DNA of 64,000 nucleotides, taken from the IMG/VR virus record IMGVR_UViG_3300031344_000001; one strand, 5' to 3'. The position numbers were made by a program, and so were the translations under genes. Shown piece after piece: positions 19,543-45,467 of the stretch. Under the pieces are notes generated by a model, which had not been told where the DNA came from, did no database searches, and saw nothing but the letters and a program-made list of their open reading frames with translations. The DNA comes from a virus. Taxonomy: Duplodnaviria > Heunggongvirae > Uroviricota > Caudoviricetes. How positions within the stretch are numbered: the first letter of the stretch is position 1; every line of letters begins with the position of its first letter.

Positions 19543-19568
19543 CCACGCCCAGAGTATCGCAGTCGCAG

Positions 19569-19651
19569 TGCGCCTGGCTGGGGTCGAACCAGCACGGGAT
19601 TACTCCCAGCGGTTCCTAAGACCGCCGCGTATTCCGCTCCGCCACAGGCAC
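19569..19651 (-). tRNA. tRNA-Leu(TAG)
   Basis: cloverleaf; loop CTTAGGA. Confidence 0.9.
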
Positions 19652-19667
19652 TTACGTTGAAGAATCG

Positions 19668-19752
19668 TGCGGCCAACAGGAGTCGAACCTGCCCGGGCTT
19701 GCGCCCACCAGCACCTCAAGCTGGCGTGTCTGCCAAAATCCACCATGGCCGC
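19668..19752 (-). tRNA. tRNA-Leu(GAG)
   Basis: loop TTGAGGT. Confidence 0.9.
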
Positions 19753-19762
19753 ATACAACACG

Positions 19763-19847
19763 TGCGGACGACAGGAATTGAACCTGCCCGGGCTTGCGCC
19801 CACCGAGCCCTGAACTCGGCGTGTCTACCAAGATCCACCACGTCCGC
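19763..19847 (-). tRNA. tRNA-Leu(CAG)
   Basis: loop TTCAGGG. Confidence 0.9.
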
Positions 19848-19865
19848 GTATCTAATTTTCAAGAG

Positions 19866-19949
19866 TGCCAACGGCGAGAGTCGAACTCGCACGAGCGTCA
19901 AGCTCGGTCGGGTTTAGGCCGACTGCGTCTACCGATCCGCCACGCTGGC
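19866..19949 (-). tRNA. tRNA-Leu(TAA)
   Basis: loop CCTAAAC. Confidence 0.9.
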
Positions 19950-19950
19950 G

Positions 19951-20034
19951 TGTCCGAGGCGAGAATCGAACTCGCATGAGCCTGAAGCCCAGCCGGGTTT
20001 GAGCCGACCGCGTCTACCAATCCGCCACTCGGAC
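19951..20034 (-). tRNA. tRNA-Leu(CAA)
   Basis: loop CTCAAAC. Confidence 0.9.
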
Positions 20035-20057
20035 GAAGTGCTGCGAGCTACGACTAC

Positions 20058-20111
20058 CTAGACAGGTAGTCGTAGCGAGCGAAGTCGAACAGGTAAGCGG
20101 AACGTGCGCAT
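20058..20111 (-). promoter_or_regulatory. Leu-codon leader peptide MRTFRLPVRLRSLRLPV with 13-bp hairpin (20047..20076)
   Basis: GGAG SD; Leu codons TTA, CTT, CTA, CTA. Confidence 0.75.
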
Positions 20112-20124
20112 CGAGGACACTCCA

Positions 20125-20153
20125 CATCTAGCGCGGACCCGCGCTATCGTCAA
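20125..20153 (-). promoter_or_regulatory. promoter TTGACG-N17-TAGATG
   Basis: consensus match upstream of the Leu leader. Confidence 0.55.
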
Positions 20154-26084: not shown

Positions 26085-26210
26085 AAGAGCAGCCGAGTGA
26101 AGAGTGCTTGGATGAATGCAGGGAGTTTTGAAATCCCAACCTTCGGCTTCGTAGGCCGACGCTCTACCGTTGAGCTATGCGTGTGAGCACTCTAAGGATT
26201 GGCTGCTTCT
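26085..26210 (-). ncRNA. Y-RNA-like ncRNA containing tRNA D, anticodon (ACG) and T-like arms
   Basis: closing stems GCAGCC/GGCTGC and AGAGTGCT/AGCACTCT; T-run after. Confidence 0.65.
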
Positions 26211-26212
26211 CG

Positions 26213-26335
26213 AGGCGGATCTTGGAGTCGAACCAAGCGGCTTGTAGACATTCGACGTGTGTCTCCTCGCGGAGACGAGTGCCGCTGTCGGGATTTCTTC
26301 CAGTAAGAAGTGGGACACCGCGTCCCTTATCCGCC
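26213..26335 (-). ncRNA. tRNA-like RNA with very large (about 55-nt) variable region
   Basis: GGCGGAT/ATCCGCC acceptor; CTTGG-TTCGACT-CCAAG T arm. Confidence 0.65.
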
Positions 26336-26343
26336 AAAAACTA

Positions 26344-26480
26344 GGCCGCCGAGTTGAGAGTCCTGGATGCTTTTCAGCCTGTTTACGAGACAGGTGCCGG
26401 AACCGACCGGCGTTCAGATCCTCTTTCGAGGACTTGTGGGAGTTGAACCCAAGGCTTGTGAGGACTCTCGGTTGGTGACC
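26344..26480 (-). ncRNA. Y-RNA-like ncRNA with permuted tRNA-like domain
   Basis: GAGAGTCCT/AGGACTCTC stem; T arm first, then GAAA hairpin, then GG-loop hairpin. Confidence 0.65.
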
Positions 26481-26491
26481 GAGCGAGTGGG

Positions 26492-26520
26492 ACTTTAACC
26501 AATAGGAGGGTCGCTGTCAA
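26492..26520 (-). promoter_or_regulatory. promoter TTGACA-N17-TAAAGT
   Basis: near-consensus; upstream of the three ncRNAs. Confidence 0.75.
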
Positions 26521-31116: not shown

Positions 31117-33008
31117 CACGCTGAGGCGCCCACTGCCATTGATCGCGGCGAGAACGCCCACGCGGGCTTCACGAGCAAGTCCGTCTTGAGGATCGTGTCC
31201 ACGAGCGACACGCGCGGTGCAGCCGCGCGGACCGTGGCCCCCACCGGCGTCGCCGCCACGAGCGCGCGGAGCGTCCGCGGGATCGCGTAGACGTCGTCGA
31301 AGGTGTCCTCTCCGATCATGAAGCACGGGAGCCCGAGCGCCGCGGCCGTGCGCTCGACGCACCCGAAGTTCTGGCCCGGCAACCTGAGGAAGCCGAAGGC
31401 CGTGGGGCGCAGCCTGGACTGCGTCACGTACTCAGCGAACGCCCCATGCTCCCCGCCGTCGCCGACGAAGATGAACAGCACGTCCTCGTCCTCCTTGGGA
31501 GGAAACCTCGCCAATGCGAGGACGCCCGCGCCGTGCGCCGTGCCGCCCTCCGCCGAGATCCCCTTGAAGGCGTTCTCGACACCGGCTGCCGAGGCGTGCT
31601 TGATCTCGACCACGCGCCCCGCCGTGTTGAACACGGCGACGTGCGTGCGGTCCGGCGGAAAGCCCTGAACGGACTTGCTCATCAGGCGCTTCGCCTTCTC
31701 GATGGAGTTACCCATCGAGGACGAGATGTCGACGAAGAAGTAGAGCCGGAGGTTCTTCACCACCTGCTCGACGGCCTTCTGGAGCGCCGTGTCGGCCGCA
31801 CCCTGGAGCTGCTCCTGCACGGCCTTGGACTTCACGTTGCTAGCGATGTTCGCCGCGCGCATGTCGTCCTCGGCCTTCTTGAGGGCACGCTCCCACTTCG
31901 CCTTGACCTCCTTGACCTCCAGGAGCCCGAGCTCCTCGAGCGTGGGCGTGAGGATGATGAGGTCCTTGTTGGACAGGGAGCCCGACTCGACGGCGGCGGC
32001 CATGATGGCCCGCGTGACACCGAGCTTCTTCGGCAAGAGCCCGACGACCCGCTTCCAGTCCGGCTTCTCGGCGACGATCTTCTCGCAGACCTGCGCCTCG
32101 GTCAGCTCGTCCCAGCTCTCGGCCTTGGACATCTCGACGCCGATGAGCATCGAGCGCCGGCCGTCCTTTGCCTGATCCTGGGACCAGGTCAGCGCCTCGA
32201 AAAACTTCGGCGTCGAGGGCTTGTAGCCGACGGCCCGCGCGAGGTCCATCACCGTGCTCTTGAAGCCAGCCTTGATGAGGCCGTCGAGCATCTTGGGGTT
32301 CTCCTCGCGGAACTGGAGCCACTTCTCGACGACCTTCGCCCAGCGCCCCAGGAACGGGCGCCGGGCGGAGTGGCCGAAACCCAGCTCGCGGTTGACGGCA
32401 GCCACGCCCGGCACCTTCAAGAGGTTGTGGACGCGGAGCAGGAGCTTCGGGTTCAGATCTTTGCCGTCCCGCCGGTGGACGAGCAGCATCGCCTCACCAA
32501 CGTCGCGGAAGTCGTCGTCGTAGAACGACACCTTGCCCCCGTCGAGCACGGGGTCACCCTTGCGGGTCTGCACGAGCATGAATGCCGCGAGCACGACCTT
32601 GAGGTCGCGGTGCTCCTGCCCGAAGGCGTACGAGGCCCAGCGCGCAGCGAACTCGTTGTCCATCCGCCAGACCTCGGCGACCTGGCGGTACATCCACACG
32701 GCGACCTCGGGGAACAGCCCCGGCGCGCGGTACTCGCCGACCACGCGCCCGTTCTCCTCGACCTTCCGATCGGCGCGCATCACGCCCTTGCGGACCTTGT
32801 TCGTCTTCTTGCCGACCTTCGTCAGCTCGTAGACGACCTTCTGACCGTTCTCGTCCTTGTGCGTGACCGGCACCCAGCGCACGCCGACCGCGTGCCGCGC
32901 GTCCGCCGTCACCATGCCGGGACGGTTGTGGACCATGTGGTCTGCGTAGTTCAGGAGCGTCTGGAGGATCTTCTCCGCCGGGCCCAGCTTCTCGTTTGCA
33001 GTCGTCAT
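31116..33008 (-). CDS. vWA-domain protein with large helical N-terminus, Ro/TROVE-like
   Basis: MIDAS DISSS..GGT..GD; architecture and RNA-repair context; TROVE call is inferred. Confidence 0.7.
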   Translation of the reverse strand: MTTANEKLGPAEKILQTLLNYADHMVHNRPGMVTADARHAVGVRWVPVTHKDENGQKVVYELTKVGKKTNKVRKGVMRADRKVEENGRVVGEYRAPGLFPEVAVWMYRQVAEVWRMDNEFAARWASYAFGQEHRDLKVVLAAFMLVQTRKGDPVLDGGKVSFYDDDFRDVGEAMLLVHRRDGKDLNPKLLLRVHNLLKVPGVAAVNRELGFGHSARRPFLGRWAKVVEKWLQFREENPKMLDGLIKAGFKSTVMDLARAVGYKPSTPKFFEALTWSQDQAKDGRRSMLIGVEMSKAESWDELTEAQVCEKIVAEKPDWKRVVGLLPKKLGVTRAIMAAAVESGSLSNKDLIILTPTLEELGLLEVKEVKAKWERALKKAEDDMRAANIASNVKSKAVQEQLQGAADTALQKAVEQVVKNLRLYFFVDISSSMGNSIEKAKRLMSKSVQGFPPDRTHVAVFNTAGRVVEIKHASAAGVENAFKGISAEGGTAHGAGVLALARFPPKEDEDVLFIFVGDGGEHGAFAEYVTQSRLRPTAFGFLRLPGQNFGCVERTAAALGLPCFMIGEDTFDDVYAIPRTLRALVAATPVGATVRAAAPRVSLVDTILKTDLLVKPAWAFSPRSMAVGASA

Positions 33009-33089
33009 CGCGATCCCCCTTGCAGCCAGCGCATTCACCTGGCTGCGCTTTGTGCCATCAGATGCACTCGAATGCAAGCGCAGGGATCG

Positions 33090-33161
33090 TATCGGCGACG
33101 GGGATCGAACCCGTATCTCGGTCTTGAAAGGACCGGGTCCTGGCCATTGAACGACGCCGAC
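33090..33161 (-). tRNA. tRNA-Glu(TTC)
   Basis: loop CTTTCAA. Confidence 0.9.
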
Positions 33162-33166
33162 AGGAG

Positions 33167-33234
33167 TGCCTCCGGCTGGACTCGAACCAGCTCACCGAGC
33201 TTCGGAGACTCGGGTCACGTCCACGTACGGAGGC
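33167..33234 (-). tRNA. tRNA-Arg(CCG), minimal D loop
   Basis: loop CTCCGAA. Confidence 0.8.
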
Positions 33235-33448
33235 GTGAAATAGTGCGTAGTCGACGACGATGCTAACGTTATGCTGTGAGCCGATCCCGCCGCCGTCGGA
33301 AGCTGCCGAAGTGCAGCTGTGGTCGCCACTGCATCCCACGCGATGATGCGAAGCAGCGCGATTCAATCGGGAGCTGCACGATCCTCGAGTACACCTACGA
33401 GCACAACGCGCGCCTGCGCGCGTTCCGTCGGAAGCGTGCCGCATCAAG

Positions 33449-33521
33449 TGATCCCGCCAGGACTTGAACCTGGGCCCTTCGGTTTAGGAAACCGACGCTC
33501 TGTCCACTGAGCTACGGGACC
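33449..33521 (-). tRNA. tRNA-Arg(CCT)
   Basis: loop TTCCTAA. Confidence 0.9.
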
Positions 33522-33865
33522 GACGTCTCTCGCGACCACATCTCAGGGCTGTGCTCGCTGAGATCCTTGACGCGGCCCCAGAAGAGCGCCTTGATGTCGA
33601 ACGGGATCTCGAACTTCGGATCGGTGCGCTCGCGTACGACGCGAAACACGTCGTAGACCAGTTCGTCGACGGGGTGCTTGATCTCCTCGACGTAGATCCG
33701 GCTGAACTTCTCCCGCCAGTGAAAGAAGGATCCGCGCGCCGCGCACCAGCGCGCGACCGAAGCGTTCCGACAGCGGCCGACGTAGTACGCACCGTCCACG
33801 AGCGCATCCCTTAACAGGATCGCGCGACCGGTGTGCTCGTCGTGGTGCGGAAGCGCGAAGGACAC
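33512..33865 (-). CDS. hypothetical protein inside the tRNA array
   Basis: GAYYVGRCRNASVARW; start approximate. Confidence 0.6.
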   Translation of the reverse strand: MSFALPHHDEHTGRAILLRDALVDGAYYVGRCRNASVARWCAARGSFFHWREKFSRIYVEEIKHPVDELVYDVFRVVRERTDPKFEIPFDIKALFWGRVKDLSEHSPEMWSRETSVP

Positions 33866-33889
33866 GAGGAAGAGTCTACACCGCGCAAG

Positions 33890-33963
33890 TGCTCCTGGAG
33901 GGACTCGAACCCACAAAGGGCCGTTTAGAAAACGGCTGCCCGTTCCAACCGAGCATCAGGAGC
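33890..33963 (-). tRNA. tRNA-Arg(TCT)
   Basis: loop TTTCTAA. Confidence 0.85.
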
Positions 33964-33975
33964 AGAAAAAGATCG

Positions 33976-34047
33976 AGCACCGGGCGGGAATCGAACCCGC
34001 GTTGCGCGCTTTGCAGGCGCGTGCCTGAGCCACTTGGCTACCGGTGC
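33976..34047 (-). tRNA. tRNA-Cys(GCA)
   Basis: loop CTGCAAA; U73. Confidence 0.9.
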
Positions 34048-34071
34048 AAAACAGGTGATACGCTCAACTTC

Positions 34072-34323
34072 ATGGCCGTCACTCCCCTGATCTTGAACGT
34101 TCGTATCTCTGCCCCAACCTCGAGCGAGGTTGGAGAAAACCTCTGGCGTGTCGACATCGTCGGTGGCGTCTCGTCACGGGATGGAACGCCCCTGAGCGGC
34201 GGTCTTCTGGCGATCTGCGACACCGAGCGCGAGGCCCAAGCCTTCGTCGCAGCGCTCGGCCTCGACAACCTGTTGAACAGGATGGCCGAGCACCTGAGCA
34301 GGTCAGCGGACAAAAGCAGGTGA
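34072..34323 (+). CDS. hypothetical protein
   Basis: ORF antisense to the array. Confidence 0.5.
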   Translation: MAVTPLILNVRISAPTSSEVGENLWRVDIVGGVSSRDGTPLSGGLLAICDTEREAQAFVAALGLDNLLNRMAEHLSRSADKSR

Positions 34324-34499
34324 ACAACTATCTACTGTGGGGTCTTGGAATCGTTGTCCCACTAACGTGCGCCATTAGCTGGATACGAGGACGGGGGCCG
34401 ATCTGCACATGTCGTGAGCCCGGCGATTCTTGCGGACATTGCAACAGGCCGCTTCCTAAAGCCAAGGTGGTAAACCGCTGATCGTAGCGGCCCGCGTAG

Positions 34500-34570
34500 T
34501 TCAGGAGGAAGGACTCGGACCTTCATAGCTGGTGTCAAAGACCAGCGTCCTACCGTTAGACGACTCCTGA
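34500..34570 (-). tRNA. tRNA-Gln(TTG)
   Basis: loop CTTTGAC. Confidence 0.9.
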
Positions 34571-34583
34571 TCATCCAGTGTCG

Positions 34584-34657
34584 AGCCGTCACTCGGAGTC
34601 GCACCGAGCCCTCTCGCGTACCAGGCGAGCGTGCCGAACTGCGGGCACCTTGGCGGC
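34584..34657 (-). tRNA. tRNA-Thr(GGT)
   Basis: loop CTGGTAC. Confidence 0.8.
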
Positions 34658-34670
34658 AGAAGTTTCTTCG

Positions 34671-34739
34671 TGGAGAGGATGGGAGTCGAACCCACGCAGC
34701 TCCGCTTGCAAGGCGGTGCACCATCCCGATGGCCTCCCC
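34671..34739 (-). tRNA. tRNA-Ala(TGC), minimal D loop
   Basis: loop CTTGCAA; G3:U70. Confidence 0.85.
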
Positions 34740-34859
34740 AGGATGCAAAGTACAAAGAAGACTCAGCCGCGTCGCCGAGCGCTCGGCGTGCGCGGCATCC
34801 TAGAGGGAGCCCCTCGCGAGGATGAGTCGTCGACGCGCGTTGATCGAACGCGCTATCGG

Positions 34860-34934
34860 CGGGAACGACGGGATTTGAACCCGCGATCTCTGCCGTGACA
34901 GGGCAGCGTCCACTCCGAGCTGGACCACGTTCCC
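34860..34934 (-). tRNA. tRNA-Asp(GTC)
   Basis: loop CTGTCAC. Confidence 0.9.
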
Positions 34935-34966
34935 AAAGAGCGAGAGCGTTGCCGCGCGCTCGCACG

Positions 34967-35173
34967 TCAATTCGGTCGCTCTCGAACGTCGTTGATCGGA
35001 GCCATGGGGAAATGGCCGCACCGTTCACACCGCGGCGCCAGCTCGGCGCGAGCGCGCGGATCGTCGGGCTTGAGCGTCAGCTTCGCGCCGCACCCCGGGC
35101 AGCCCCACCGATAGATGGGCTCCGTGAAGGGCACGAGGTCCTCGGGACGGAAGGTGCCGTACTTAACCTTCAC
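34967..35173 (-). CDS. small Zn-ribbon protein
   Basis: CPGC...CERC; overlaps the HNH stop. Confidence 0.5.
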   Translation of the reverse strand: MKVKYGTFRPEDLVPFTEPIYRWGCPGCGAKLTLKPDDPRARAELAPRCERCGHFPMAPINDVRERPN

Positions 35174-35706
35174 CCTTGCTCCAGCTCCGCGGTCCAGTAC
35201 AGGTAGTCCCTCCAAGCGTCGGGCACCGACGCGCTGCTCACGGCCACTACGAGCACCGGCGACGCGGTCGGCTGTACCGGCGTCTTCAGGAGACGCATGC
35301 CCGCCTGCTCGGGCGTGCGGTTCGCCTTCTTGCGGTTGCAGTCCTCGCAGCACGTGACGATGTTCGTCCACGTCGTCGTGCCACCCCGCGAGCGGGGCAA
35401 GACGTGGTCGTACGATAGGTCGCCGATCGAGTGCTTCGTGCCGCAATACTGGCAGGTGTACTTGTCGCGCCCGTAGATGTTGATGCGCGAGAACTTCACC
35501 GGCTTCTTGTGCCGACGGAACGCCGAGAGTAGCCGCACGACCGCGGGGATCTTGATGACGACCGAGGTCGTCTTGATGTTGCGGTCGTACTCCTCGATCA
35601 CCTCGGCCTTGCCGAGGAAGAGCAGCGTGATCGCGTGCTTCCACGAGACGATGTTCACCGGCTCGTAGCTCTGCGAGAGGACAAGGGTTCTATGTGTCGA
35701 CTCCAT
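35170..35706 (-). CDS. HNH endonuclease (McrA-like, LVLxxSYEP N-terminus)
   Basis: RDKYTCQYCG..DHVLPRSRGG..WTNIVTCCEDCN. Confidence 0.9.
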   Translation of the reverse strand: MESTHRTLVLSQSYEPVNIVSWKHAITLLFLGKAEVIEEYDRNIKTTSVVIKIPAVVRLLSAFRRHKKPVKFSRINIYGRDKYTCQYCGTKHSIGDLSYDHVLPRSRGGTTTWTNIVTCCEDCNRKKANRTPEQAGMRLLKTPVQPTASPVLVVAVSSASVPDAWRDYLYWTAELEQG

Positions 35707-35784
35707 GGCGTTCGTTCTCCTTCGTTCGATCCTACAGACGTTCCACCCGGCGCGGATCTGACACCGCCACCAGAACTCCTTTCG

Positions 35785-35856
35785 TCGAGCAGACAGGGAT
35801 CGAACCTGCGGTCCCCGGTTCCCCGAACCGGTGCGATACCACTTCGCCACTGCTCG
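35785..35856 (-). tRNA. tRNA-Pro(GGG)
   Basis: loop TCGGGGA. Confidence 0.85.
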
Positions 35857-35859
35857 AGC

Positions 35860-35935
35860 TGGGGTGACTAGAGGGAATCGAACCCTCGTATCCTGTTCCA
35901 CAAACAGGCGCCTTAGCCGCTAGGCGATAGTCACC
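35860..35935 (-). tRNA. tRNA-His(GTG)
   Basis: loop TTGTGGA; G-1; CCA. Confidence 0.9.
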
Positions 35936-35945
35936 ATAATCATCG

Positions 35946-36018
35946 TAGGCCCCGAAGGATTTGAACCCTCAACATTCCGCTAATAAGGCAGACGTTCTAC
36001 CTGTTGAACTAGAGGCCC
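35946..36018 (-). tRNA. tRNA-Ile(TAT)
   Basis: loop CTTATTA. Confidence 0.8.
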
Positions 36019-36024
36019 GCGTCG

Positions 36025-36096
36025 TAGGACTGGGAGGAGTTGAACCTCTCATCGCTCGGTTATCAACCAAGTGCTCTACCGTTGAGCTACAGTCCC
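36025..36096 (-). tRNA. tRNA-Ile(GAT)
   Basis: loop TTGATAA. Confidence 0.9.
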
Positions 36097-36102
36097 GCAT
36101 CG

Positions 36103-36175
36103 TAGAGAACGTCGGAATCGAACCGACCTCAAGCGTCTTGTAAGGGCGCCATCACCGCCAGGTGGACTGTCCTCC
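36103..36175 (-). tRNA. tRNA-Val(TAC)
   Basis: loop CTTACAA. Confidence 0.8.
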
Positions 36176-36181
36176 ATGTCG

Positions 36182-36256
36182 TCGGGGTGAGTGGATTTGA
36201 ACCACCAATCTCTGCGTCCCGAACGCAGCGCTCTGACCAGGTTGAGCCACACCCCG
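36182..36256 (-). tRNA. tRNA-Pro(CGG)
   Basis: loop TTCGGGA. Confidence 0.9.
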
Positions 36257-36290
36257 TTGTTCGTATCGTAGCGCATCCGTACATCGTTCG

Positions 36291-36362
36291 TCGCAACGGG
36301 CGGACTTGAACCGCACCCCGCACGGCTTATGAGACCGTCGTCCAGATCCACTGGTCGCTGCG
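36291..36362 (-). tRNA. tRNA-Met/Ile2(CAT)
   Basis: loop CTCATAA. Confidence 0.8.
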
Positions 36363-36366
36363 AAGG

Positions 36367-36441
36367 CGTGGTCTCCGGGACTTTCACCCAGCTGCGCTTT
36401 GGCTTCCTCCTCGCGTTCGCCGTCCGCGAGGCCAAGACCAC
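36367..36441 (-). ncRNA. tRNA-like RNA lacking an anticodon stem
   Basis: GTGGTCT/AGACCAC acceptor; CTGGG-TGAAAGT-CCCGG T arm; 7-bp D-like stem. Confidence 0.55.
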
Positions 36442-36442
36442 G

Positions 36443-36515
36443 TGGCAGGTCGCCAGGGGATTGAACCCTGCCGCTACGGATTTGGAATCCGAGCCGAGCC
36501 CAGCTCGCGCGACCT
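36443..36515 (-). tRNA. tRNA-Trp(CCA), minimal D loop
   Basis: loop TTCCAAA; GCCA end. Confidence 0.85.
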
Positions 36516-36597
36516 AGAAAGAAAGGCTCGCGCGCACCAGTCATCGTCACGGTGGTGGGACACCGTGCCGAGCTGCCCACGTGCGTGCGAGCGCTAG

Positions 36598-36671
36598 TAC
36601 CCCTGGAAGGAATTGCACCTCCGACACCTCGGTCCGTAGCCGAGTGCTCTGGTCTACTGAGCTACAGGGGC
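36598..36671 (-). tRNA. tRNA-Arg(ACG)
   Basis: loop CTACGGA. Confidence 0.9.
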
Positions 36672-36677
36672 AAAGAG

Positions 36678-36751
36678 TGTCGCGTGCGGGAGTCGAACCC
36701 GCGTTTCCGGTGTGAGGGACCAGCGTCCTAGGCCATCTGGACGAACACGAC
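36678..36751 (-). tRNA. tRNA-Glu(CTC)
   Basis: loop CCCTCAC. Confidence 0.85.
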
Positions 36752-36759
36752 AAAAACAG

Positions 36760-36831
36760 TGCGCGCGGCAGGGATCGAACCTGCGAGCTCCGGGTTGTCG
36801 TCCCGGCAATCTGCCGCTGATCTACGCGCGC
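36760..36831 (-). tRNA. tRNA-Val(GAC)
   Basis: loop ACGACAA. Confidence 0.85.
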
Positions 36832-36834
36832 ATC

Positions 36835-36909
36835 GGAGCGGATGACGAGAATCGAACTCGCCTTTAGAGCGTTGGAAGCGCCCTGCCTCACCAGTCGAGC
36901 CTCATCCGC
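36835..36909 (-). tRNA. tRNA-Gly(TCC)
   Basis: loop CTTCCAA; U73. Confidence 0.9.
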
Positions 36910-36916
36910 AAAACAG

Positions 36917-36988
36917 CTCCTCGGGCAGGAATCGAACCTGCAACCCTCGCGTTAACAGCGCGCCGCACTACCGTTGTGCTACCGAAGA
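36917..36988 (-). tRNA. tRNA-Asn(GTT)
   Basis: loop CTGTTAA. Confidence 0.9.
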
Positions 36989-37004
36989 ATATCGAAAACT
37001 GTCG

Positions 37005-37077
37005 AGCCCGCAGCAGGGATCGCACCCGCGGCCCCTCGCTTACAAGGCGAGTGCTCTGCTGGCTGAGCTATACGGGC
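37005..37077 (-). tRNA. tRNA-Thr(TGT)
   Basis: loop CTTGTAA. Confidence 0.9.
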
Positions 37078-37087
37078 AAGCTCGTCG

Positions 37088-37158
37088 AGCCCTCGTCGAG
37101 AATCGAACTCGAGCCTGCGGTTTACGAAACCGCTGCACGACCGTCGTGCTACGAGGGC
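37088..37158 (-). tRNA. tRNA-Thr(CGT)
   Basis: loop TTCGTAA. Confidence 0.9.
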
Positions 37159-37162
37159 ATTC

Positions 37163-37393
37163 ATGTCATCGAGCATCCACCTCACTCTTCGTGAGCTTCG
37201 TGACGCCTCCGAGTGGGCCGAGGCCCACGTGCGCGATGTCCACAGCGGCGACTTGCCGAACGGGGACCTCCGCGTCTCCACGCTGCCGACCGCCGGCATC
37301 GGGATGCGCGTCGTCGTCTTGTGCGAGGCGTGCGACCGCGTTCGAGTATCAAACGCGAACCACCACGACGTCACCGACTACAGCTGCTGGTGA
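37163..37393 (+). CDS. hypothetical protein
   Basis: ORF antisense to the array. Confidence 0.55.
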   Translation: MSSSIHLTLRELRDASEWAEAHVRDVHSGDLPNGDLRVSTLPTAGIGMRVVVLCEACDRVRVSNANHHDVTDYSCW

Positions 37394-37396
37394 TGA

Positions 37397-37582
37397 ATGT
37401 CCCAGCAACCACGCAACATCGACCTCGATCTTGAAGGGGGCGAACGACTTGCGCTGACCGTGAAATGTCCGAACGCGCGCTGTGCCTCCCCATCCGGAAC
37501 AAGGTGCCAACCGTACACGCACTGGGTCCGCGTAGCGTGGGCGCTTCGCGCGTTACCAAAACCCGTCGAACGCGACGTCTAA
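37397..37582 (+). CDS. small zinc-finger protein
   Basis: CP..RC....C...THWVR. Confidence 0.5.
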   Translation: MSQQPRNIDLDLEGGERLALTVKCPNARCASPSGTRCQPYTHWVRVAWALRALPKPVERDV

Positions 37583-37585
37583 CCG

Positions 37586-37657
37586 AGCGGACGACGGGGA
37601 TCGAACCCGCCTGTATCAGCTTGGCAAGCTGACGCCGCACCAAGCGGCCTCGTCCGC
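37586..37657 (-). tRNA. tRNA-Gly(GCC)
   Basis: loop TTGCCAA. Confidence 0.9.
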
Positions 37658-37773
37658 AAAACGAAGTCCCGAGTCGCGTTTCAACGTCCGAGTTGGGGTA
37701 ACTCAGGCGCCTCATCGTTGCTACGGCGATCACGTGATCGCCGGCCCGGGCTCTCGGATGCCCGTGCTTCTCG

Positions 37774-37845
37774 TCGAGGTGAGAGGAATCGAACCTCCAG
37801 TCCCAGCGTCCCAAACGCTGTACCCTACCGTTGGGCCACACCTCG
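37774..37845 (-). tRNA. tRNA-Pro(TGG)
   Basis: loop TTTGGGA. Confidence 0.9.
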
Positions 37846-37963
37846 GAAAAGTTGCTCCCCCTGGATCCCAGTTATTCCCCGGCATGGGGACCTCCGCGCC
37901 TGCGGTTCTTAGAAGTGCCGGGCAAGATGTCGTCTGCACAGGGGAGCTTTGACGACCCACGCG

Positions 37964-38035
37964 TGCCCCCGGTTGGACTTGAACCAACACGCTTCCGGGT
38001 AAGAACCGGCTGCTCTGCATTGGAGCTACGGAGGC
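37964..38035 (-). tRNA. tRNA-Lys(CTT)
   Basis: loop TTCTTAC. Confidence 0.85.
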
Positions 38036-38086
38036 AAAGAACGGGCACCAACTCGCGTACGACCGCGAAGTGATTGCCCGCAAACG

Positions 38087-38159
38087 TGCCCAGAGATCGA
38101 GTTGAACGATCATCTCCAGCTCTTCAGGCCGGCGCTTGCACCTCGCAAGCTGTCTGGAC
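38087..38159 (-). tRNA. tRNA-Phe(GAA)
   Basis: loop CTGAAGA. Confidence 0.85.
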
Positions 38160-38307
38160 AATTGTGCGATCGCGCCACATGCCGCGATCGCGTCATCGTC
38201 GTCAACTATTCACTTGTCAGGTGCCCCGTCCCCACCGTGTCGCTGGCGTCCCGCTGTGAGCTCTGCTCGGGGGACCGTCGATTCACGAGTGGTGCAGTCA
38301 GCCGCAG

Positions 38308-38378
38308 TTCAGGGGGAAGGGATCGAACCCTCATAGCGAGTGTCAGAGACTCGCGTCCTACCGTTAGACGACCCCTGA
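38308..38378 (-). tRNA. tRNA-Gln(CTG)
   Basis: loop CTCTGAC. Confidence 0.9.
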
Positions 38379-38780
38379 TCGATCTTTACGCTTTTTTCGT
38401 TTGTACTCACGACAGTATTTGTTCTGAGCCTCTCGGCAACGGGCGCAATGACAGTAGCGATACGAAGACCGGGTACCGTGCTTTCCTTTCGCGACCTCTT
38501 GTCCGAGTTCCGTGATTGTTTTCTCCTCGTGACAAGCGCGACAAAGCGCCTGACATTTTCTCAACTCTTGCTCGAAGCGCTCCTTGGAGACAGACCACAA
38601 CTGACTGATCGAAAATGACTTCTTTTTTGGGTCAACGTGATCAAATTCTAACGCCTCAGTGGATCCACACTTGCAGCAGACGCCCCCAAGTTGCTTGAGC
38701 GCTGCCTCACGTCGTGCGTGATAGCGTTTAAGTATGTAAACGCGCATGTACGCATTATAATCTTGGCGCTTACTTGGCAT
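38364..38780 (-). mobile_element. small HNH endonuclease inserted in the tRNA array
   Basis: CCKCG..LEFDH..KCQALCRACH; lower GC. Confidence 0.8.
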
Positions 38781-38782
38781 CG

Positions 38783-38854
38783 TGGGATCAGAGGGATTTG
38801 AACCCTCAACTCTTGACTTAAAAGGACAGTATGATGCCGTTTCACCATGATCCC
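38783..38854 (-). tRNA. tRNA-Lys(TTT)
   Basis: loop CTTTTAA; weak anticodon stem. Confidence 0.8.
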
Positions 38855-38899
38855 ATTAGTGCGTCAAGAGTTTTCGTTTCTTCATCAAATCTCCTTTCG

Positions 38900-38983
38900 T
38901 GGGCGCGCTCGGAATCGAACCGAGACGGTGCAGAGCACGCGTGATCTACAATCACGCCCGGAGCCACGCCGGTCTGCGCGCCC
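38900..38983 (-). tRNA. tRNA-Tyr(GTA)
   Basis: loop TTGTAGA; long variable arm. Confidence 0.85.
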
Positions 38984-38984
38984 G

Positions 38985-39069
38985 AAAACGAGAAGAGCCT
39001 CCAAGGGTTATCCCAGGGAGGCTCCAGATCGCTTCGGCTGTTTCAGCCTGGTCTATGCGTCTGGAGCCT
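38985..39069 (-). terminator. attenuator: terminator 38985..39024 and mutually exclusive antiterminator 39019..39069
   Basis: GAGCCTCC/GGAGGCTC-TTCTCGTTTT versus AGGCTCCAGA/TCTGGAGCCT. Confidence 0.75.
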
Positions 39070-39226
39070 TCTCTTCGTAGGTCGTGGGCTGCGGCTCGCG
39101 CTTGATACCCACGACGGTCCCCTGGCCGGCGAAGTTCGCCATACCCGCCCAATCGCGGCGCGCACACGGATGTCCTACGGTGCCTTGGCACCTGGACGAC
39201 ACTGTGAGAGCGAATGCGATCGACAT
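39053..39226 (-). promoter_or_regulatory. 57-aa leader peptide containing all 20 amino acids
   Basis: MSIAFALTV...YEEKAPDA; ends inside the antiterminator. Confidence 0.7.
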
Positions 39227-39242
39227 GGCGGGTACAAGGAGG

Positions 39243-39271
39243 ATGCTAACGTGCCGCCGATCAGAAGTCAA
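39243..39271 (-). promoter_or_regulatory. promoter TTGACT-N17-TAGCAT
   Basis: consensus match. Confidence 0.7.
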
Positions 39272-39297
39272 CGTCTTGCTCTCAGCGCGCAGACAGC

Positions 39298-39918
39298 TCA
39301 CGTCGTGACGCTCAACTCCGCGCGTCGCATGAAGCGCCCGCGCCGATGACCGCGCTGCGAACCGCGCTTTCTTTCTACGCCTGCCACACGCTCGTAACCC
39401 GCCGCGAGAAGGGCCTTCCGTAACACATCCGCGGTGACCCCGAGGTTACTGGCCACTTCGCAGCTGGGCATCCCCTGGTTCTCGATCCAACTCACGGCCA
39501 GCCTGACGCTGTAGTCATCGAGCCGTCGATCCGGGAGCCACGTCACGTGCAGCACGTGGAACTTCACGCGCGTGCGCACGTAGAGGACGCTCGTACCTGG
39601 CGCACGCCCGATCTCGAGGATGCCTTCCGCTCGGAGTGCCTCCGGCGTGGTCGACGTTTGAACGAGCGACGCCCGTGCACGCACCCGCGAGGGCGCTGCT
39701 GTTTGCCCTCGCGGCGCGAGGGCCGTGGGCAACGGCGGCGGCGGCGACGGCGGCGGCGGCGACGGCGGCGACGGCGGCGGCGGCGACGGCGGCGGCGGCG
39801 GCGACGGCGGCATGCACGCGATTTGAACGGGCGCAGGGAGCGGTTCGAGCCCTAAGCGCGCTCTCTCATCACGCTCGAACGCCGCGAAGGACGAATAGAT
39901 GCGTGGAACGAGCGTCAC
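39298..39918 (-). CDS. Pro-rich protein with possible C-terminal HTH
   Basis: poly-Pro tract; EVASNLGVTADVLRK. Confidence 0.55.
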   Translation of the reverse strand: MTLVPRIYSSFAAFERDERARLGLEPLPAPVQIACMPPSPPPPPSPPPPSPPSPPPPSPPPPLPTALAPRGQTAAPSRVRARASLVQTSTTPEALRAEGILEIGRAPGTSVLYVRTRVKFHVLHVTWLPDRRLDDYSVRLAVSWIENQGMPSCEVASNLGVTADVLRKALLAAGYERVAGVERKRGSQRGHRRGRFMRRAELSVTT

Positions 39919-40029
39919 CGCGTGCTCCGCTGCCGAGACGCGCGATCACCGCGCTGAAGCTGGACCGCGATCACCGCCGATTTCTCTACCACAGACGCGC
40001 GGCACGCTAGGGTGCTTCCGCAGTCCCCC

Positions 40030-40497
40030 ATGTACAAGGTCCAGCTGATCTACTTCCGGCAGACCGGCAAATTCCTGGCGATCGCCGAGGCCCTCACCAC
40101 GCACGACACGCTGGTCGAGATCTGGGAAGAGGTCGACGACTTGCGACGCCTCGGTCGACTGCCCGCGCTGCGCATTGGCACAGGGCGCGACCTGTTCATC
40201 TTCGTCGACGTCCCCGACCACCCGCAGCGCGTGCCGCACCTGGTGATGCCCCCATTCATCGACGACGACGACGTCACACCGCTGCGGGTCGGTACCGGCG
40301 AGATGGTGCCACTAGTCCGCATGCCGCTCGACGAGCTGCCACGTCCCCAACCATCACGCACCACCACGCGGGACGTGCTCAAGATCGATCCCGCAGTGTT
40401 CACCACCGAACCGTGCCTCGACACAGGCGTCGCGTCTGACGAAGAGATTACGCCCGTCGACCAGCCGATTCCCAAGAGCCCCGACAAAAAGCCCTAG
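40030..40497 (+). CDS. hypothetical protein
   Basis: ORF. Confidence 0.65.
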   Translation: MYKVQLIYFRQTGKFLAIAEALTTHDTLVEIWEEVDDLRRLGRLPALRIGTGRDLFIFVDVPDHPQRVPHLVMPPFIDDDDVTPLRVGTGEMVPLVRMPLDELPRPQPSRTTTRDVLKIDPAVFTTEPCLDTGVASDEEITPVDQPIPKSPDKKP

Positions 40498-40525
40498 CTC
40501 GCGAGCTCACCAGGACCGTGAGGCT

Positions 40526-40984
40526 TCACTCCTGAGCGGCGACGGCGAACGCTCGCCGCCACCACGAGCATTCCTCGACGAAGTCCACGCGCCCCAAGAT
40601 CCTGATCGTGCCGTCACGCAAGATCGCGCCGTAGTCGAACTCGTGCTCGGGACCTCCATCCGACAAGAACTTCGCGTGCGCGTCCGCGTCGCAGCCGGTC
40701 CCGTCCGGCGGGTGGCTCGCGTGCGCGTGCGCGATCCACCACTGGCGCGACGGGAAGAACCAGGACGTACCGTCCTCCGCGTAACCGATCGGGAAGTCGA
40801 GGTAGCCCCCACCGCCCGGCTTGCGTGCGCGAATCGCGACGGTCCAAAAGTTCGCGATCCAGGGCTTCTCGAGGTGCACGTTGATCATTCCGCGCACAGA
40901 GGCCGGCAACGAAGCGTCAAGGACGAGCGCGTCCCGTCGCCGCAGCAGCATGCTGGCGGCGATCTGTGCGATCTGGATGCGCAT
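40526..40984 (-). CDS. hypothetical protein
   Basis: ORF coupled to the phosphatase gene. Confidence 0.55.
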   Translation of the reverse strand: MRIQIAQIAASMLLRRRDALVLDASLPASVRGMINVHLEKPWIANFWTVAIRARKPGGGGYLDFPIGYAEDGTSWFFPSRQWWIAHAHASHPPDGTGCDADAHAKFLSDGGPEHEFDYGAILRDGTIRILGRVDFVEECSWWRRAFAVAAQE

Positions 40985-41430
40985 CAGCGTCCGGGAGCCT
41001 GCTTCACGTCGACCACGACGCGAACAAGGCGCTCGAAATTCGGGTTCGACAGCGCCCACGCGCCGCGCGCGCCGCGCAGTCGACCGACGATCTCATCGGC
41101 GCTCATGCCAAAGACGTCGTGCATCGCGAGCGCCGCGATCAGCGCCGATCGGTTCAGCCCCATCGCACACGTCACCAGCACGCGCTTCCCCGCACGCAAG
41201 CGACGAGCCACGCGGCCTGCGGCCTTCGTCGCAACGACGATCTCATCCTCGCGCAACGGCCGCTGCGGATCGTCGTCGAGCGGAGCGTGGAGCACCTCCG
41301 CGCCGGGGAACGAGTCAGCGGGGGGCTGGTACTCCATCGCCGCGAGGACGATCGCGTCGACGCAAGCGTGTCGTCCAAGCGCGGGCTTCGAGCCCACGAA
41401 GAGTCCAGGCGCAACCTCATTCTGCGACAT
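40984..41430 (-). CDS. dual-specificity protein phosphatase
   Basis: PLDD; VLVTCAMGLNRS (CX5R). Confidence 0.9.
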   Translation of the reverse strand: MSQNEVAPGLFVGSKPALGRHACVDAIVLAAMEYQPPADSFPGAEVLHAPLDDDPQRPLREDEIVVATKAAGRVARRLRAGKRVLVTCAMGLNRSALIAALAMHDVFGMSADEIVGRLRGARGAWALSNPNFERLVRVVVDVKQAPGR

Positions 41431-41458
41431 CAGCAACTCCTCCAACAACGAGCGAAGA

Positions 41459-41950
41459 TCACGACGGAGAAACCTTGCCGAGCATCCCGCCGAGGAAGCG
41501 CAGCGGGCGGTCACCAACGTTCTCGACGTAGATCATGATGGAGCTGCCCACGGTAGCAAGCGGCAGCGTCCACGGCGACCCGAGCAGCTCGGCGGCCTTC
41601 TTGCCCACCTTGATCTCGATCACCTTGTCACGCGCGAACATCGCGTCGATCTCGGCGATCGCCTCCATGGACGTCGCGAAAGCGTCGGCCGGGATCGGCG
41701 CTGACGCCGAGGCCAGCGCCTCGCGCGTTCCCACACGGAGAGAGTGGATCAAGAACGACGACGCGATCGGTAAATGCACGAACAACCGGTTGCCGCGGAA
41801 CGGGATCTGGGGCCTCGATTCGAGCACGATGTAGCCCGCCGGCATGACGTCCCCGGTCCGGTCCACCTCACCTGCGAGTAACCGTCCCGAGCGACTGTCG
41901 AAGCCGAGCCAACCGTCTGCTGTGTCGACGTGCTCCTTGGCGTTCATCAT
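41459..41950 (-). CDS. beta-rich hypothetical protein related to the 18535..19542 repeat unit
   Basis: RPQIPFRGNRL..FLIHSLRVG..IPADAF. Confidence 0.6.
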   Translation of the reverse strand: MMNAKEHVDTADGWLGFDSRSGRLLAGEVDRTGDVMPAGYIVLESRPQIPFRGNRLFVHLPIASSFLIHSLRVGTREALASASAPIPADAFATSMEAIAEIDAMFARDKVIEIKVGKKAAELLGSPWTLPLATVGSSIMIYVENVGDRPLRFLGGMLGKVSPS

Positions 41951-42139
41951 CGGGACCTCAGCCTAACAGGCTCTCGGGCAGATCCACCAGCAGTGCATCC
42001 TCACCGACGACCTCGTCAAGGTCGTCGGTCTGCACGGGCCGCCGCCTGCGTCCAGTCTCTCGCACGCTCTGGGCCTGGGCCCGCGCGGTCTGACGGCGAA
42101 CGATCACAGCACGGCGTTTGCGACGCTCCGCTGGCGTCA

Positions 42140-43409: not shown

Positions 43410-45467
43410 TCACAACTCCTCGTTCCACCCGTCCCCGTCGATCGGGACGAACCCCTTGTCGGTCAACTCGAGGCGTCCCACGATGTTGGTAGCTCCGAAC
43501 CGATTCTTGCCGGGGCACCGGAGGATCCTCTCCCGTCCCTCAAGCTTCGCGCTCTGCTCCATCTCGAGCACGACGTCGACGTCGTGCTCGATCGTCTTGG
43601 GGCCCGCGATGTCCCCGTCCGCCGTGACGTGCCCGATGAGCCAGAGGGCCGTGCCTGTCGTCTTAGCGTAGCTGACAAAGCGATCCGTGCACGCCTTGAG
43701 CTGCGCCGGGGACCCCGCACGCCCTCCAACGTCCTCGCAGATCATCTTCTGGATCGAGTCGATCGCGATCGTCTGCGCGCGCATCGCCCGCGCGTGCGCG
43801 AAGATCTTGGTGAGTTGCCGCTCGGCCATCACGTAGAGCCGGGGAGACACCGCGTCGATGCGCCGCGCGGTCGCCGCGAGCTGCTCGCGCGTCTCCTCAC
43901 CCGTGACGTAGAGGCAACGGTGCTTGAGCCCGACGAGCACCTGGAGGGTGAGCGACGAATTATGCGTGACGGTGAAATCGCCGAGCAGGAAGCGCCCGTC
44001 GCCATCCAGGGTAAATCCGAAAAAAAGACCTTCTCCAATCGGCTCGACAGCGAAGCCCGTGCGCGTCGCGACCTTCTTCTGCCGCCGCGGACGCGCTTGT
44101 TTACGCGGAAGGCGCGTCGGGATCATGTTCGTGTCACCCGAGATGGTGACTCGCCAGTAATCGCCCTCGAAGATCGAACCATCGGCACGTTTGTAGCGCC
44201 CACGTTTGGGCACGATCGTCGCGCACAGCCCGAGTGATCGAGCCATCCACCAAATCTCCCGCGCCCAATCCTCGCGCTTCTGCGTGATGCAGAGACATGT
44301 GTTAACCAGATCGCCATCACGGTCGAGCAAGCCCGCCAAGAACTGGAGACGCTGATCACGTGGCGCCCTCGTATAGATCGCAGGCATGCGCAACTCCGTG
44401 CCGAGCAGGTTACGCAGCGTGCTGAGCAAGCGATTGACTGTCCCGCAACCGCGACTGCCATTGGTGATGGCGTACGTCGGACACCCACTGGTGTTTAGCG
44501 ACACGGTGACCTGCAAGTCCCAGGAACGCGCGACGTCTTCACACGACGCACGCACCTCGGGATCTGGCTTAGTGACGTGCACCTTCCTGAGCTGCCCGTC
44601 TTGGACCTGCTTAGTACCATCGCCGAACCAAAGTCCTAGAAAATAAGGATCGACCGGGAGCGTGTGGGTCTCTCCTCCAAATGACTCCACGCCGACGCTG
44701 AAGAGCTTTCCGTGATGACGCATGTCCGAATGCGGCGCCTTCGCTTGCCATTCGTCGAGGGGTACGTCGAACACTTCGTCCGTGTAACTGTCGACCAACG
44801 TGAGTACATGCGCGTCGTTGCAAATCCACGGCTCCCCCTTGATCGGATCAATCCGAAAGAGTTCTCCGCGCCCCTCATTCGTCGAGAGCACGACACGGGG
44901 CTTACCATCAGGCCCCATCAAACGATCACCCGGCAAGATTTGCTCAACCGGCAACACGCGGCCATCAAACAAAAGTACCGGCGTTCCACGTCCGAGGCAC
45001 TTACCAATGCCAGGCGGCGACGCGAGCAGCACCACGGAAGCCACGACCAGACCGCCCCCAAGCACGTGGTCGACAGGCACGAGCCCCGTCGAGTCACGAA
45101 CGAACGTCGCTTCCGGGATCTCCGAGATCGGGATCGGCGCCTCGGAGGCGGAGTCCACCGCTGATTCCTCCTCAGGTTCCGTGAGCTCGGGCTCGGGAGA
45201 AGGCGCGCGCACGACCGTGAGTCGCGAGAACTGCGGCACCGGCAATTCCGGCCGGGCCCTTCGCAGTGCGGGCGCCTGGTCCTGCGCAACGGCTTGCACC
45301 GGGACCTCCGCATCGGCGTTGACCACGTCGAGCCCCTCCATCGCTCGACAGCCCACGCAACGAGGCACCCACTTGGCGTGCACCTGCCCGCACGCGCGGC
45401 ACACGAAGCGACGAACGGGGGCGTCGTTCACGACGCCCGGATTGTGAGGATCTCGATCGATGGGCAC
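43410..45467 (-). CDS. radA: RadA/Sms-like ATPase with intein, lacking the Lon-like domain
   Basis: C4 Zn finger; PPGIGK|S Walker A; YVTGEE; IDSIQ; IGHVT..G.IAGPK.IEH; KNRFG. Confidence 0.9.
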   Translation of the reverse strand: MPIDRDPHNPGVVNDAPVRRFVCRACGQVHAKWVPRCVGCRAMEGLDVVNADAEVPVQAVAQDQAPALRRARPELPVPQFSRLTVVRAPSPEPELTEPEEESAVDSASEAPIPISEIPEATFVRDSTGLVPVDHVLGGGLVVASVVLLASPPGIGKCLGRGTPVLLFDGRVLPVEQILPGDRLMGPDGKPRVVLSTNEGRGELFRIDPIKGEPWICNDAHVLTLVDSYTDEVFDVPLDEWQAKAPHSDMRHHGKLFSVGVESFGGETHTLPVDPYFLGLWFGDGTKQVQDGQLRKVHVTKPDPEVRASCEDVARSWDLQVTVSLNTSGCPTYAITNGSRGCGTVNRLLSTLRNLLGTELRMPAIYTRAPRDQRLQFLAGLLDRDGDLVNTCLCITQKREDWAREIWWMARSLGLCATIVPKRGRYKRADGSIFEGDYWRVTISGDTNMIPTRLPRKQARPRRQKKVATRTGFAVEPIGEGLFFGFTLDGDGRFLLGDFTVTHNSSLTLQVLVGLKHRCLYVTGEETREQLAATARRIDAVSPRLYVMAERQLTKIFAHARAMRAQTIAIDSIQKMICEDVGGRAGSPAQLKACTDRFVSYAKTTGTALWLIGHVTADGDIAGPKTIEHDVDVVLEMEQSAKLEGRERILRCPGKNRFGATNIVGRLELTDKGFVPIDGDGWNEEL
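43959..44999 (-). mobile_element. intein (347 aa) with LAGLIDADG endonuclease
   Basis: CLGRGT...VTHN/S; LGLWFGDG and LAGLLDRDG. Confidence 0.92.

Follow-up and report, generated by a model that had tools for sequence, protein, structure and literature searches.

The closest described counterpart of the element reported here is the upstream open reading frame (uORF) of whiB7 (wblC) in mycobacteria and other actinobacteria. [quoted passage not shown] Eighteen of the 20 amino-acid pathways induce this system, the amino acids that are sensed follow the composition of the uORF (19 of the 20 are present in M. smegmatis), and without its only Trp codon the uORF responds less strongly to Trp starvation (PMC10274678). 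The latter result meets the objection that a shortage could not be sensed through single codons.

Two further groups of leaders are related in layout or logic. The classical attenuators (trpL, hisL, leuL, thrL, pheL, the ilv leaders and pheM of pheST) combine a promoter, a leader ORF and mutually exclusive hairpins, and the position of the ribosome decides between the latter. The antibiotic-sensing leaders (ermC/cat-type, vmlR, msrD/mef and the topAI-yjhQ uORF) depend on stall-driven remodelling of the downstream RNA, in some cases through conserved nascent peptides. Full-text literature searches returned no attenuator described for tRNA genes or for phage tRNA arrays, and to our knowledge very little has been described on the regulation of such arrays.

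The window analysed here is a stretch of 64,000 nt from a virus of the Caudoviricetes, a giant soil phage (IMG/VR record IMGVR_UViG_3300031344_000001). It is phage-like, has a GC content of 61–70% and carries a tmRNA gene and 40 tRNA genes; the proteins that it encodes resemble those of huge phages most closely, and a 461-kb contig encodes a protein identical to one of the window proteins. A gene for a T4-type RNA ligase (8237-9268, minus strand; phrog_968, E 2.5e-62) and the tmRNA gene (12262-12616, plus strand; tag ANDNGAVAFAA) are located near tRNA clusters, and a toolkit of this kind for tRNA repair and ribosome rescue fits a phage that faces translation-targeting defences. The gene for a DnaB/KaiC-like ATPase (43410-45467, minus strand) is split by an intein with Hint and LAGLIDADG homing endonuclease domains.

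Upstream of tRNA-Tyr, the minus strand carries in order a promoter, an ATG, a 57-codon ORF, a small hairpin, a GC-rich hairpin and a U-rich tail. This anatomy of ORF, helix, hairpin and tail is confirmed by our analysis. With moderate confidence, we consider the element to be a ribosome-mediated attenuator of transcription through which the phage adjusts the output of its main tRNA array. Its features are as follows.

39243..39271, minus strand: sigma-70-like promoter identified by promoter scan, TTGACT, 17-nt spacer, TAGCAT
39226..39053, minus strand: leader ORF of 57 sense codons plus TAG (39055..39053), with a 5′ UTR of ~9 nt
39163..39218, minus strand: 5′ hairpin over codons 3–21 (consensus helices 1–2), from RNAalifold and pair counts
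39073..39134, minus strand: middle RNA domain (helices 3–5), a long-range helix CUUCG:CGAAG around one hairpin
39060..39069, minus strand: antiterminator arm A, AGGCUCCAGA, in codons 53–56, stopping 4 nt short of the stop codon
39036..39048, minus strand: small hairpin P, GGCUG-AAA-CAGCC, enclosed by the A:B helix and found in the folds of all relatives
39019..39032, minus strand: arm B, UCUGGAGCCU (39028..39019), plus a GCG extension that pairs with CGC of codons 56–57
38994..39025, minus strand: putative terminator hairpin with a 9-bp outer stem, a 3-bp inner stem and an AUAA loop
38984..38993, minus strand: U-rich tail UCUCGUUUUC, read from the sequence, 1 nt short of tRNA-Tyr
33089..38983, minus strand: tRNA array Tyr, Lys, Gln, Phe ... 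Glu, 29 genes by ARAGORN

We infer that this arrangement is best read as a translation gauge of a phage tRNA array that resembles the whiB7 uORF. The element works like the whiB7 attenuator on this reading but is not a member of that family; the logic is the same and there is no sequence relationship. The whiB7 uORF serves a transcription factor, whereas the phage leader precedes a tRNA array, so that feedback would operate via the supply of tRNA. Ala accounts for 25–40% of the whiB7 uORF as opposed to 14% (8/57) of the phage leader, and the conserved C-terminal peptide described below is a further difference. The likeness to trp/his-type leaders is looser and the element does not belong to that family either: it contains no runs of cognate codons, its 57 codons exceed the 14–32 of the classical leaders, and its target is tRNA genes, unlike any of theirs. 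The antibiotic-sensing leaders are short and respond to drug on the ribosome, whereas the phage leader shows no link to a drug.

The promoter at 39271..39243 was the sole match of the promoter scan within 33000..41000, and its TTGAC and TA...T elements are present in all relatives extending that far. The scan identified no second promoter-like site within the tRNA arrays. The leader ATG lies ~9 nt downstream of the likely transcription start and is not preceded by a Shine-Dalgarno sequence. Most of the confident genes of the window also lack this motif; many of their starts (e.g., 62176, 60772, 57742, and 20939) feature TAG or GTAG 10–20 nt upstream of the ATG, which hints at short-leader or non-Shine-Dalgarno initiation in this phage–host pair.

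Sites of similar type occur elsewhere in the window. The TTGACG-17 promoter pattern is found twice, against 0.1 expected. The promoter TTGACG-17-CATAGCTT at 11607-11635 (minus strand) is placed 5 nt upstream of tRNA-Met (11602), which heads a Met-Ser-Ser cluster, and no leader intervenes. A third sigma-70-like site (26520..26492, minus strand) is followed by ~300 nt of structured sequence of lower GC content and then by tRNA-Arg (26184). The region 26185-26520 (minus strand) contains the T-arm-like motifs GGGTTCAACTCCC and GGTTCGACTCC that ARAGORN did not call, and these may belong to non-canonical tRNA-like RNAs.

Arm A lies within the codons AAG GCT CCA GAC of the leader ORF. The perfect 10-bp helix proposed in the sequence-only reading was recovered in our analysis, with AGGCUCCAGA at 39069..39060 facing UCUGGAGCCU at 39028..39019, the latter overlapping 7 nt of the left arm of the hairpin. 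When the leader was shuffled 5000 times with its dinucleotides preserved, a 10-nt complement to this left-arm zone arose in 11 cases (0.2%). In the stem of the hairpin (-22.3 kcal/mol), GGAGCCUCC (39025..39017) pairs with GGAGGCUCU (39002..38994). The U tract is broken by C and G, and a simple terminator scan did not flag the site.

The first gene of the array is tRNA-Tyr (38983..38899, minus strand). ARAGORN called 29 tRNAs in 38983-33089, the earlier count of 31 having included candidate non-canonical ones as well, and none of the 29 is a tRNA for Leu or Ser. A gene for an HNH endonuclease (38364-38780, minus strand; phrog_4234, E 7e-32) lies between tRNA-Lys(ttt) and tRNA-Gln(ctg). The relatives have no such gene at this position, their Lys-Gln gap being 8–40 nt, and the gene therefore looks like a recent mobile insertion in the transcription unit.

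A search with the leader peptide identified nine small proteins of 68–83% identity, and a metagenome scan added twelve further loci carrying the element. Removal of duplicates left 17 distinct versions, which come from soil and sediment metagenomes, along with the truncated L083, whose terminator and tRNA-Tyr slot fall past the end of the contig. A profile search of 1.84 billion proteins gave ~10 representative clusters, all of small proteins, and P0017, P0020, and P0022 were the most divergent small relatives, the peptide of P0022 closing with GETPGA and that of P0017 with GEAPDA. Megablast of 38000-42000 against phage GenBank gave no match. No relative was found in GTDB genome contigs, nor in four scans of IMG/VR that used a neighbouring protein, peptide alignments and two DNA patterns; 16-mer and inverted-repeat matches in IMG/VR were rejected as chance. 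The sequencing runs listed for the element are DNA only, from rhizosphere and soil, with no RNA run among them.

Across the 17 versions, the promoter, the ATG, the position of the stop codon, the restriction to in-frame indels, the A:B helix and a covarying terminator stem are all retained. The element is positioned directly upstream of tRNA-Tyr-Lys-Gln-Phe in nearly all versions that reach that far, and the order of tRNA genes behind the leader is identical in relatives. There are two exceptions to this context. In L082, the slot of tRNA-Tyr and tRNA-Lys (2599-2675) is degenerate behind an intact leader and the first tRNA called by ARAGORN is Gln; the leader has thus been retained even without these tRNAs. 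In L006, a contig of 732 bp, the leader and terminator are complete and the U tract (UUUUUUCGUUUC) is a better one, but what comes next is foreign-looking DNA of lower GC content without tRNA (535-732), which represents either a chimeric assembly or the same switch preceding something else.

On the far side of the promoter, the window carries a 206-aa ORF (39298-39918, minus strand) that has no family match and includes a Pro/Ser-rich stretch, PPSPPPPPSPPPP..., derived from tandem repeats of the GGCGGCGAC type. In L004, L005, and L007, the upstream genes look coding and diverge from the leader promoter. In these relatives, transcription of the array must therefore come from this promoter and cross the hairpin.

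The leader ORF itself bears a clear coding signature. Its ATG is invariant and no internal stop occurs in any of the 17 versions, and the stop codon is found 13 nt after the start of arm A in every one of them. The other reading frames are interrupted in 7–16 of the 17 versions, with the exception of the codon-aligned antisense frame. All nine indel events are multiples of three (-3, -3, +3, -9, -3, +3, +6, -21, and +6). In the last 28 codons, pN/pS is 0.25, as against 1.05 for the antisense frame and 1.10 and 1.63 for the shifted frames, and L083 shows many synonymous changes in this region; in the first 29 codons, the value of 0.70 is near that of the control frames. An antisense ORF was rejected because the codon-aligned antisense frame, though open, has a pN/pS of ~1.0. 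The comparative data indicate that the leader ORF is real and not due to chance, and it is presumably translated.

These data also bear on the proposal that the frame is a chance one in GC-rich DNA and that the hairpin terminates transcription of the gene upstream. At 61–65% GC, short ORFs are frequent, and the GC3 of the leader (0.74) is below the 0.83 of confident genes. Nonetheless, we regard this proposal as extremely improbable and rejected the chance ORF, because it is contradicted by the conservation, the in-frame indels, the synonymous signature and the invariant stop over the 17 versions. The terminator of an upstream gene would also leave unexplained that the element has its own conserved promoter and that three relatives have no co-directional upstream gene.

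The two halves of the leader are under different constraints. The C-terminal half is constrained as protein and the N-terminal half conserves helices, so that the former is a conserved peptide and the latter an open frame over RNA structure. The conserved 28-residue C-terminus runs up to the stop codon, and we compared it in this respect with the arrest peptides SecM, TnaC, MifM, and ApdA/ApdP. We speculate that, as part of the nascent chain, these residues may keep the ribosome on the stop codon for longer. The sequence-only reading had predicted that homologues would conserve codon diversity rather than sequence, which does not hold for this part of the leader, where the peptide itself is conserved.

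A simple attenuator model does not need such a peptide, and the product could have a function of its own. In the corresponding alternative, the tRNAs merely share a transcript with an ORF for a small functional protein; the hairpin either terminates transcription leakily or stabilises the 3′ end of the mRNA once RNase P has cut at tRNA-Tyr, and the A:B helix contributes to mRNA stability or processing, for example by RNase III, rather than to regulation. The purifying selection on the C-terminal 28 residues is in line with this explanation, as are the end of hairpin and tail 1 nt short of the RNase P site of tRNA-Tyr and, for a processing site, the length of the A:B helix, which reaches 13–18 bp with its extension. 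However, the N-terminal half retains its frame but not its protein sequence, AlphaFold2 predicted no secondary structure for the peptide (pLDDT 55, pTM 0.12), and searches of Pfam, PHROGs and the ESM Atlas gave no family match. The invariant placement of arm A 4 nt from the stop codon and the clean switch predicted by our folding models would both have to be coincidental. On balance, we consider this alternative unlikely.

The RNA of the element is strongly structured and its structure is conserved. The leader has a z score of -4.9, 95.4% of cells in the whole consensus structure are paired compared with 37–49% in slid controls, and ten consensus pairs show changes on both sides, which none of 500 shuffles matched. 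In the 5′ hairpin (helices 1–2), 92% of cells are paired, as against ~40% in slid controls, and RNAalifold and pair counts reveal compensatory pairs such as AU/CG/GC and CG/UA. Compensatory changes in the N-terminal half alter amino acids (GGUGCC/GGCACC, GGCGCC/GGCGYC, and GGCACC/GGUGCC). Helices 3–5 are 97–100% paired and show a single double change, CG to UA, in L005 and L084. Conservation at the nucleotide level is undiminished beyond the stop codon of the leader.

Strong structure, covarying helices inside the ORF and full conservation past the stop codon could also be expected of a structured cis-acting RNA that does not sense ribosomes, such as a pause or processing platform or a factor binding site, in which the open ORF only averts Rho termination or decay. 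Such an RNA belongs to no known Rfam family: the window matched only tRNAs and the tmRNA, and the region 38800..39500 gave no hit, T-box included, even at E values up to 10. It would also fail to account for the frame-specific pN/pS of the last 28 codons and for the invariant ATG and stop. We therefore consider this explanation improbable.

In the proposed attenuator switch, the core of arm A, GGCUCCAGA, is identical in 17/17 versions, the rare codons GCT and CCA included, and the core of arm B, UCUGGAGCC, in 15/16. Because this 9-bp A:B core does not vary, it provides no direct covariation. The core includes the third positions of GCT and CCA, and UCU of arm B is located outside the terminator; the case for the A:B pairing comes only from this invariance at synonymous sites and from the flanking extension. 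The extension of 3–4 bp is maintained in three registers (CGC:GCG, UCGU:ACGA, and GCAU:GUGC) that make use of the last sense codon, GCA or GCG being combined with GCG, UCG with ACGA and GCAU with GUGC.

The terminator stem is paired in 99.3% of cells and has an energy of -17 to -24 kcal/mol in 16/16 versions. One of its pairs occurs as U-A, G-C, A-U, and G-U. Neither the loop nor the inner stem is fixed, both differing in sequence and in length among the versions. The U-richness of the tail is kept in relatives.

We modelled the switch with partition functions set at the moment when the right arm of the terminator has emerged, using a ribosome footprint of 30 nt. The A:B structure (-25 to -37 kcal/mol) shares 6–7 nt with the left arm of the terminator; in every version, it is more stable than the terminator and forms before it. 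For naked RNA of each of the 16 full-length versions, the models gave a probability of 0.73–1.00 for A:B and of at most 0.13 for the outer terminator pairs. When the footprint was placed on the stop codon, the predicted probability of the terminator was 0.73–0.98 in 16/16 versions. A codon-by-codon footprint scan placed the switch at codons 49–51 in each of the six versions scanned. Termination was predicted only with a ribosome on the last ~8 codons or the stop, and five of the six versions were predicted to antiterminate for ribosome positions from codon 1 to ~48; for the version of the window itself, the equilibrium model predicted a partial terminator for stalls at codons 23–30.

The untranslated leader is thus predicted to be antiterminated, unlike a classical attenuator. 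In the latter, a 1:2 pairing provides a “superattenuation” state that is absent from the phage leader. The sequence-only reading had held that arm A is masked once a ribosome has reached the end of the ORF, which allows the terminator to form, whereas an earlier stall frees the antiterminator. In that reading, the control could extend to the whole array and perhaps to the vWA/Ubl operon. The core logic agrees with both the comparative and the thermodynamic tests, and the switch falls at about codon 49 in the models.

Beyond the anatomy of the sequence and its evolution, the steps of the switch are inferred, among them translation of the ORF, termination at the hairpin and the coupling of the two. 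In the mechanism that we propose, host RNA polymerase would start at the conserved promoter and the 57-codon ORF would be translated from its very short 5′ UTR. On naked RNA, or upon delay of a ribosome in approximately the first 48 codons, arm A would pair with the newly made arm B. This pairing would remove six of the nine outer terminator pairs, and the polymerase would continue into tRNA-Tyr and the rest of the array. A ribosome keeping pace on the last codons or the stop would instead enclose arm A; with arm A masked, arm B would pair with arm C, the hairpin would form ahead of the U tract and transcription would end 1 nt before tRNA-Tyr. The default of the leader would accordingly be read-through, and termination would need a ribosome that has kept up with the polymerase as far as the end of the ORF.

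Such a switch would establish negative feedback, in which slow decoding raises the synthesis of phage tRNAs and recovered decoding lowers it. Production of tRNA would thus probably go up when translation falters. Candidate causes of slow decoding are a scarce host tRNA pool, starvation and tRNA-cleaving defences. Phage tRNAs have been shown to rescue infection from tRNA-cleaving defences of the host (PMC11464382, PMC11555353).

We also analysed the amino-acid content of the leader, which the sequence-only reading had taken as the mark of a general sensor. A recount of 39226..39053 agreed with its 20 amino acids and 38 distinct codons, as well as with the use of all four Gly and all four Ala codons and of three codons each for Thr, Pro, and Val. 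The 17 versions contain 34–40 distinct codons. All 20 amino acids are present in 12 of them, 19 in four (three lacking Leu and one Phe) and 17 in one, which carries a 7-codon deletion. Shuffling of residues within alignment columns gave 7.2 +/- 1.5 complete versions as compared with the 12 observed (P ~0.001), in a test that ignores shared ancestry. Some versions keep an internal Met, His, Ile, or Tyr at a shifted position. Selection for all 20 amino acids is thus suggestive but falls short of being established, five of the versions being incomplete.

Completeness by itself is only mildly unusual and constitutes weak evidence. Of the 57-codon windows in the real genes of this phage, 2.7% contain all 20 amino acids, as does one of the 120 short ORFs (50–65 codons) of the window, roughly the number that chance predicts for a stretch of this kind. 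A count of at least 38 distinct codons is reached by 0.3% of the windows from real genes, but by 18% of those without a stop in the tRNA region, and several of the A/T-ending codons of the leader are located in conserved helices. Against the background composition, no amino acid is significantly enriched and there are no regulatory codon runs. The one clearly depleted residue is Leu, at 1.5% versus 8.7% in phage genes; Ser, for which the array also has no tRNA, is not depleted. The sole Tyr codon is codon 50, at the edge of the switching zone.

Leu tRNAs are encoded elsewhere, in a five-gene cluster (20034..19568, minus strand) that has a separate promoter-like site at 20153..20125 (TTGACG-17-TAGATG). 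Between this site and the cluster, a mini-ORF of 17 codons (20111..20058, minus strand; MRTFRLPVRLRSLRLPV) includes five codons for Arg and four rare ones for Leu (TTA, CTT, CTA, and CTA). A perfect 13-bp hairpin (20076..20047, z = -4.3), not followed by a U tract, takes its left arm from the last codons of the mini-ORF. This mini-ORF may be a Leu-specific leader. Relatives of the gene upstream of it (34–36% identity) lack the cluster.

A more far-reaching and tentative version of the attenuator reading, which we think possible but doubtful, is that the main leader gauges any tRNA. It would keep a near-complete set of codons, such that shortage or cleavage of almost any tRNA would switch on a rescue array of ~30 tRNAs; the conserved nascent peptide would set the OFF state by holding the ribosome at the stop codon, and the leader of the Leu cluster would be a second, specific gauge in this phage. 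If this is true, the triggering cleavage could come from anticodon-nuclease defences.

The attenuator-like element is compact and conserved. If our interpretation is correct, a translation-sensing attenuator would make the supply of tRNA in this phage demand-driven and self-limiting, and would extend attenuation by leader ORFs from genes for amino-acid pathways, synthetases and stress regulators to tRNA genes.
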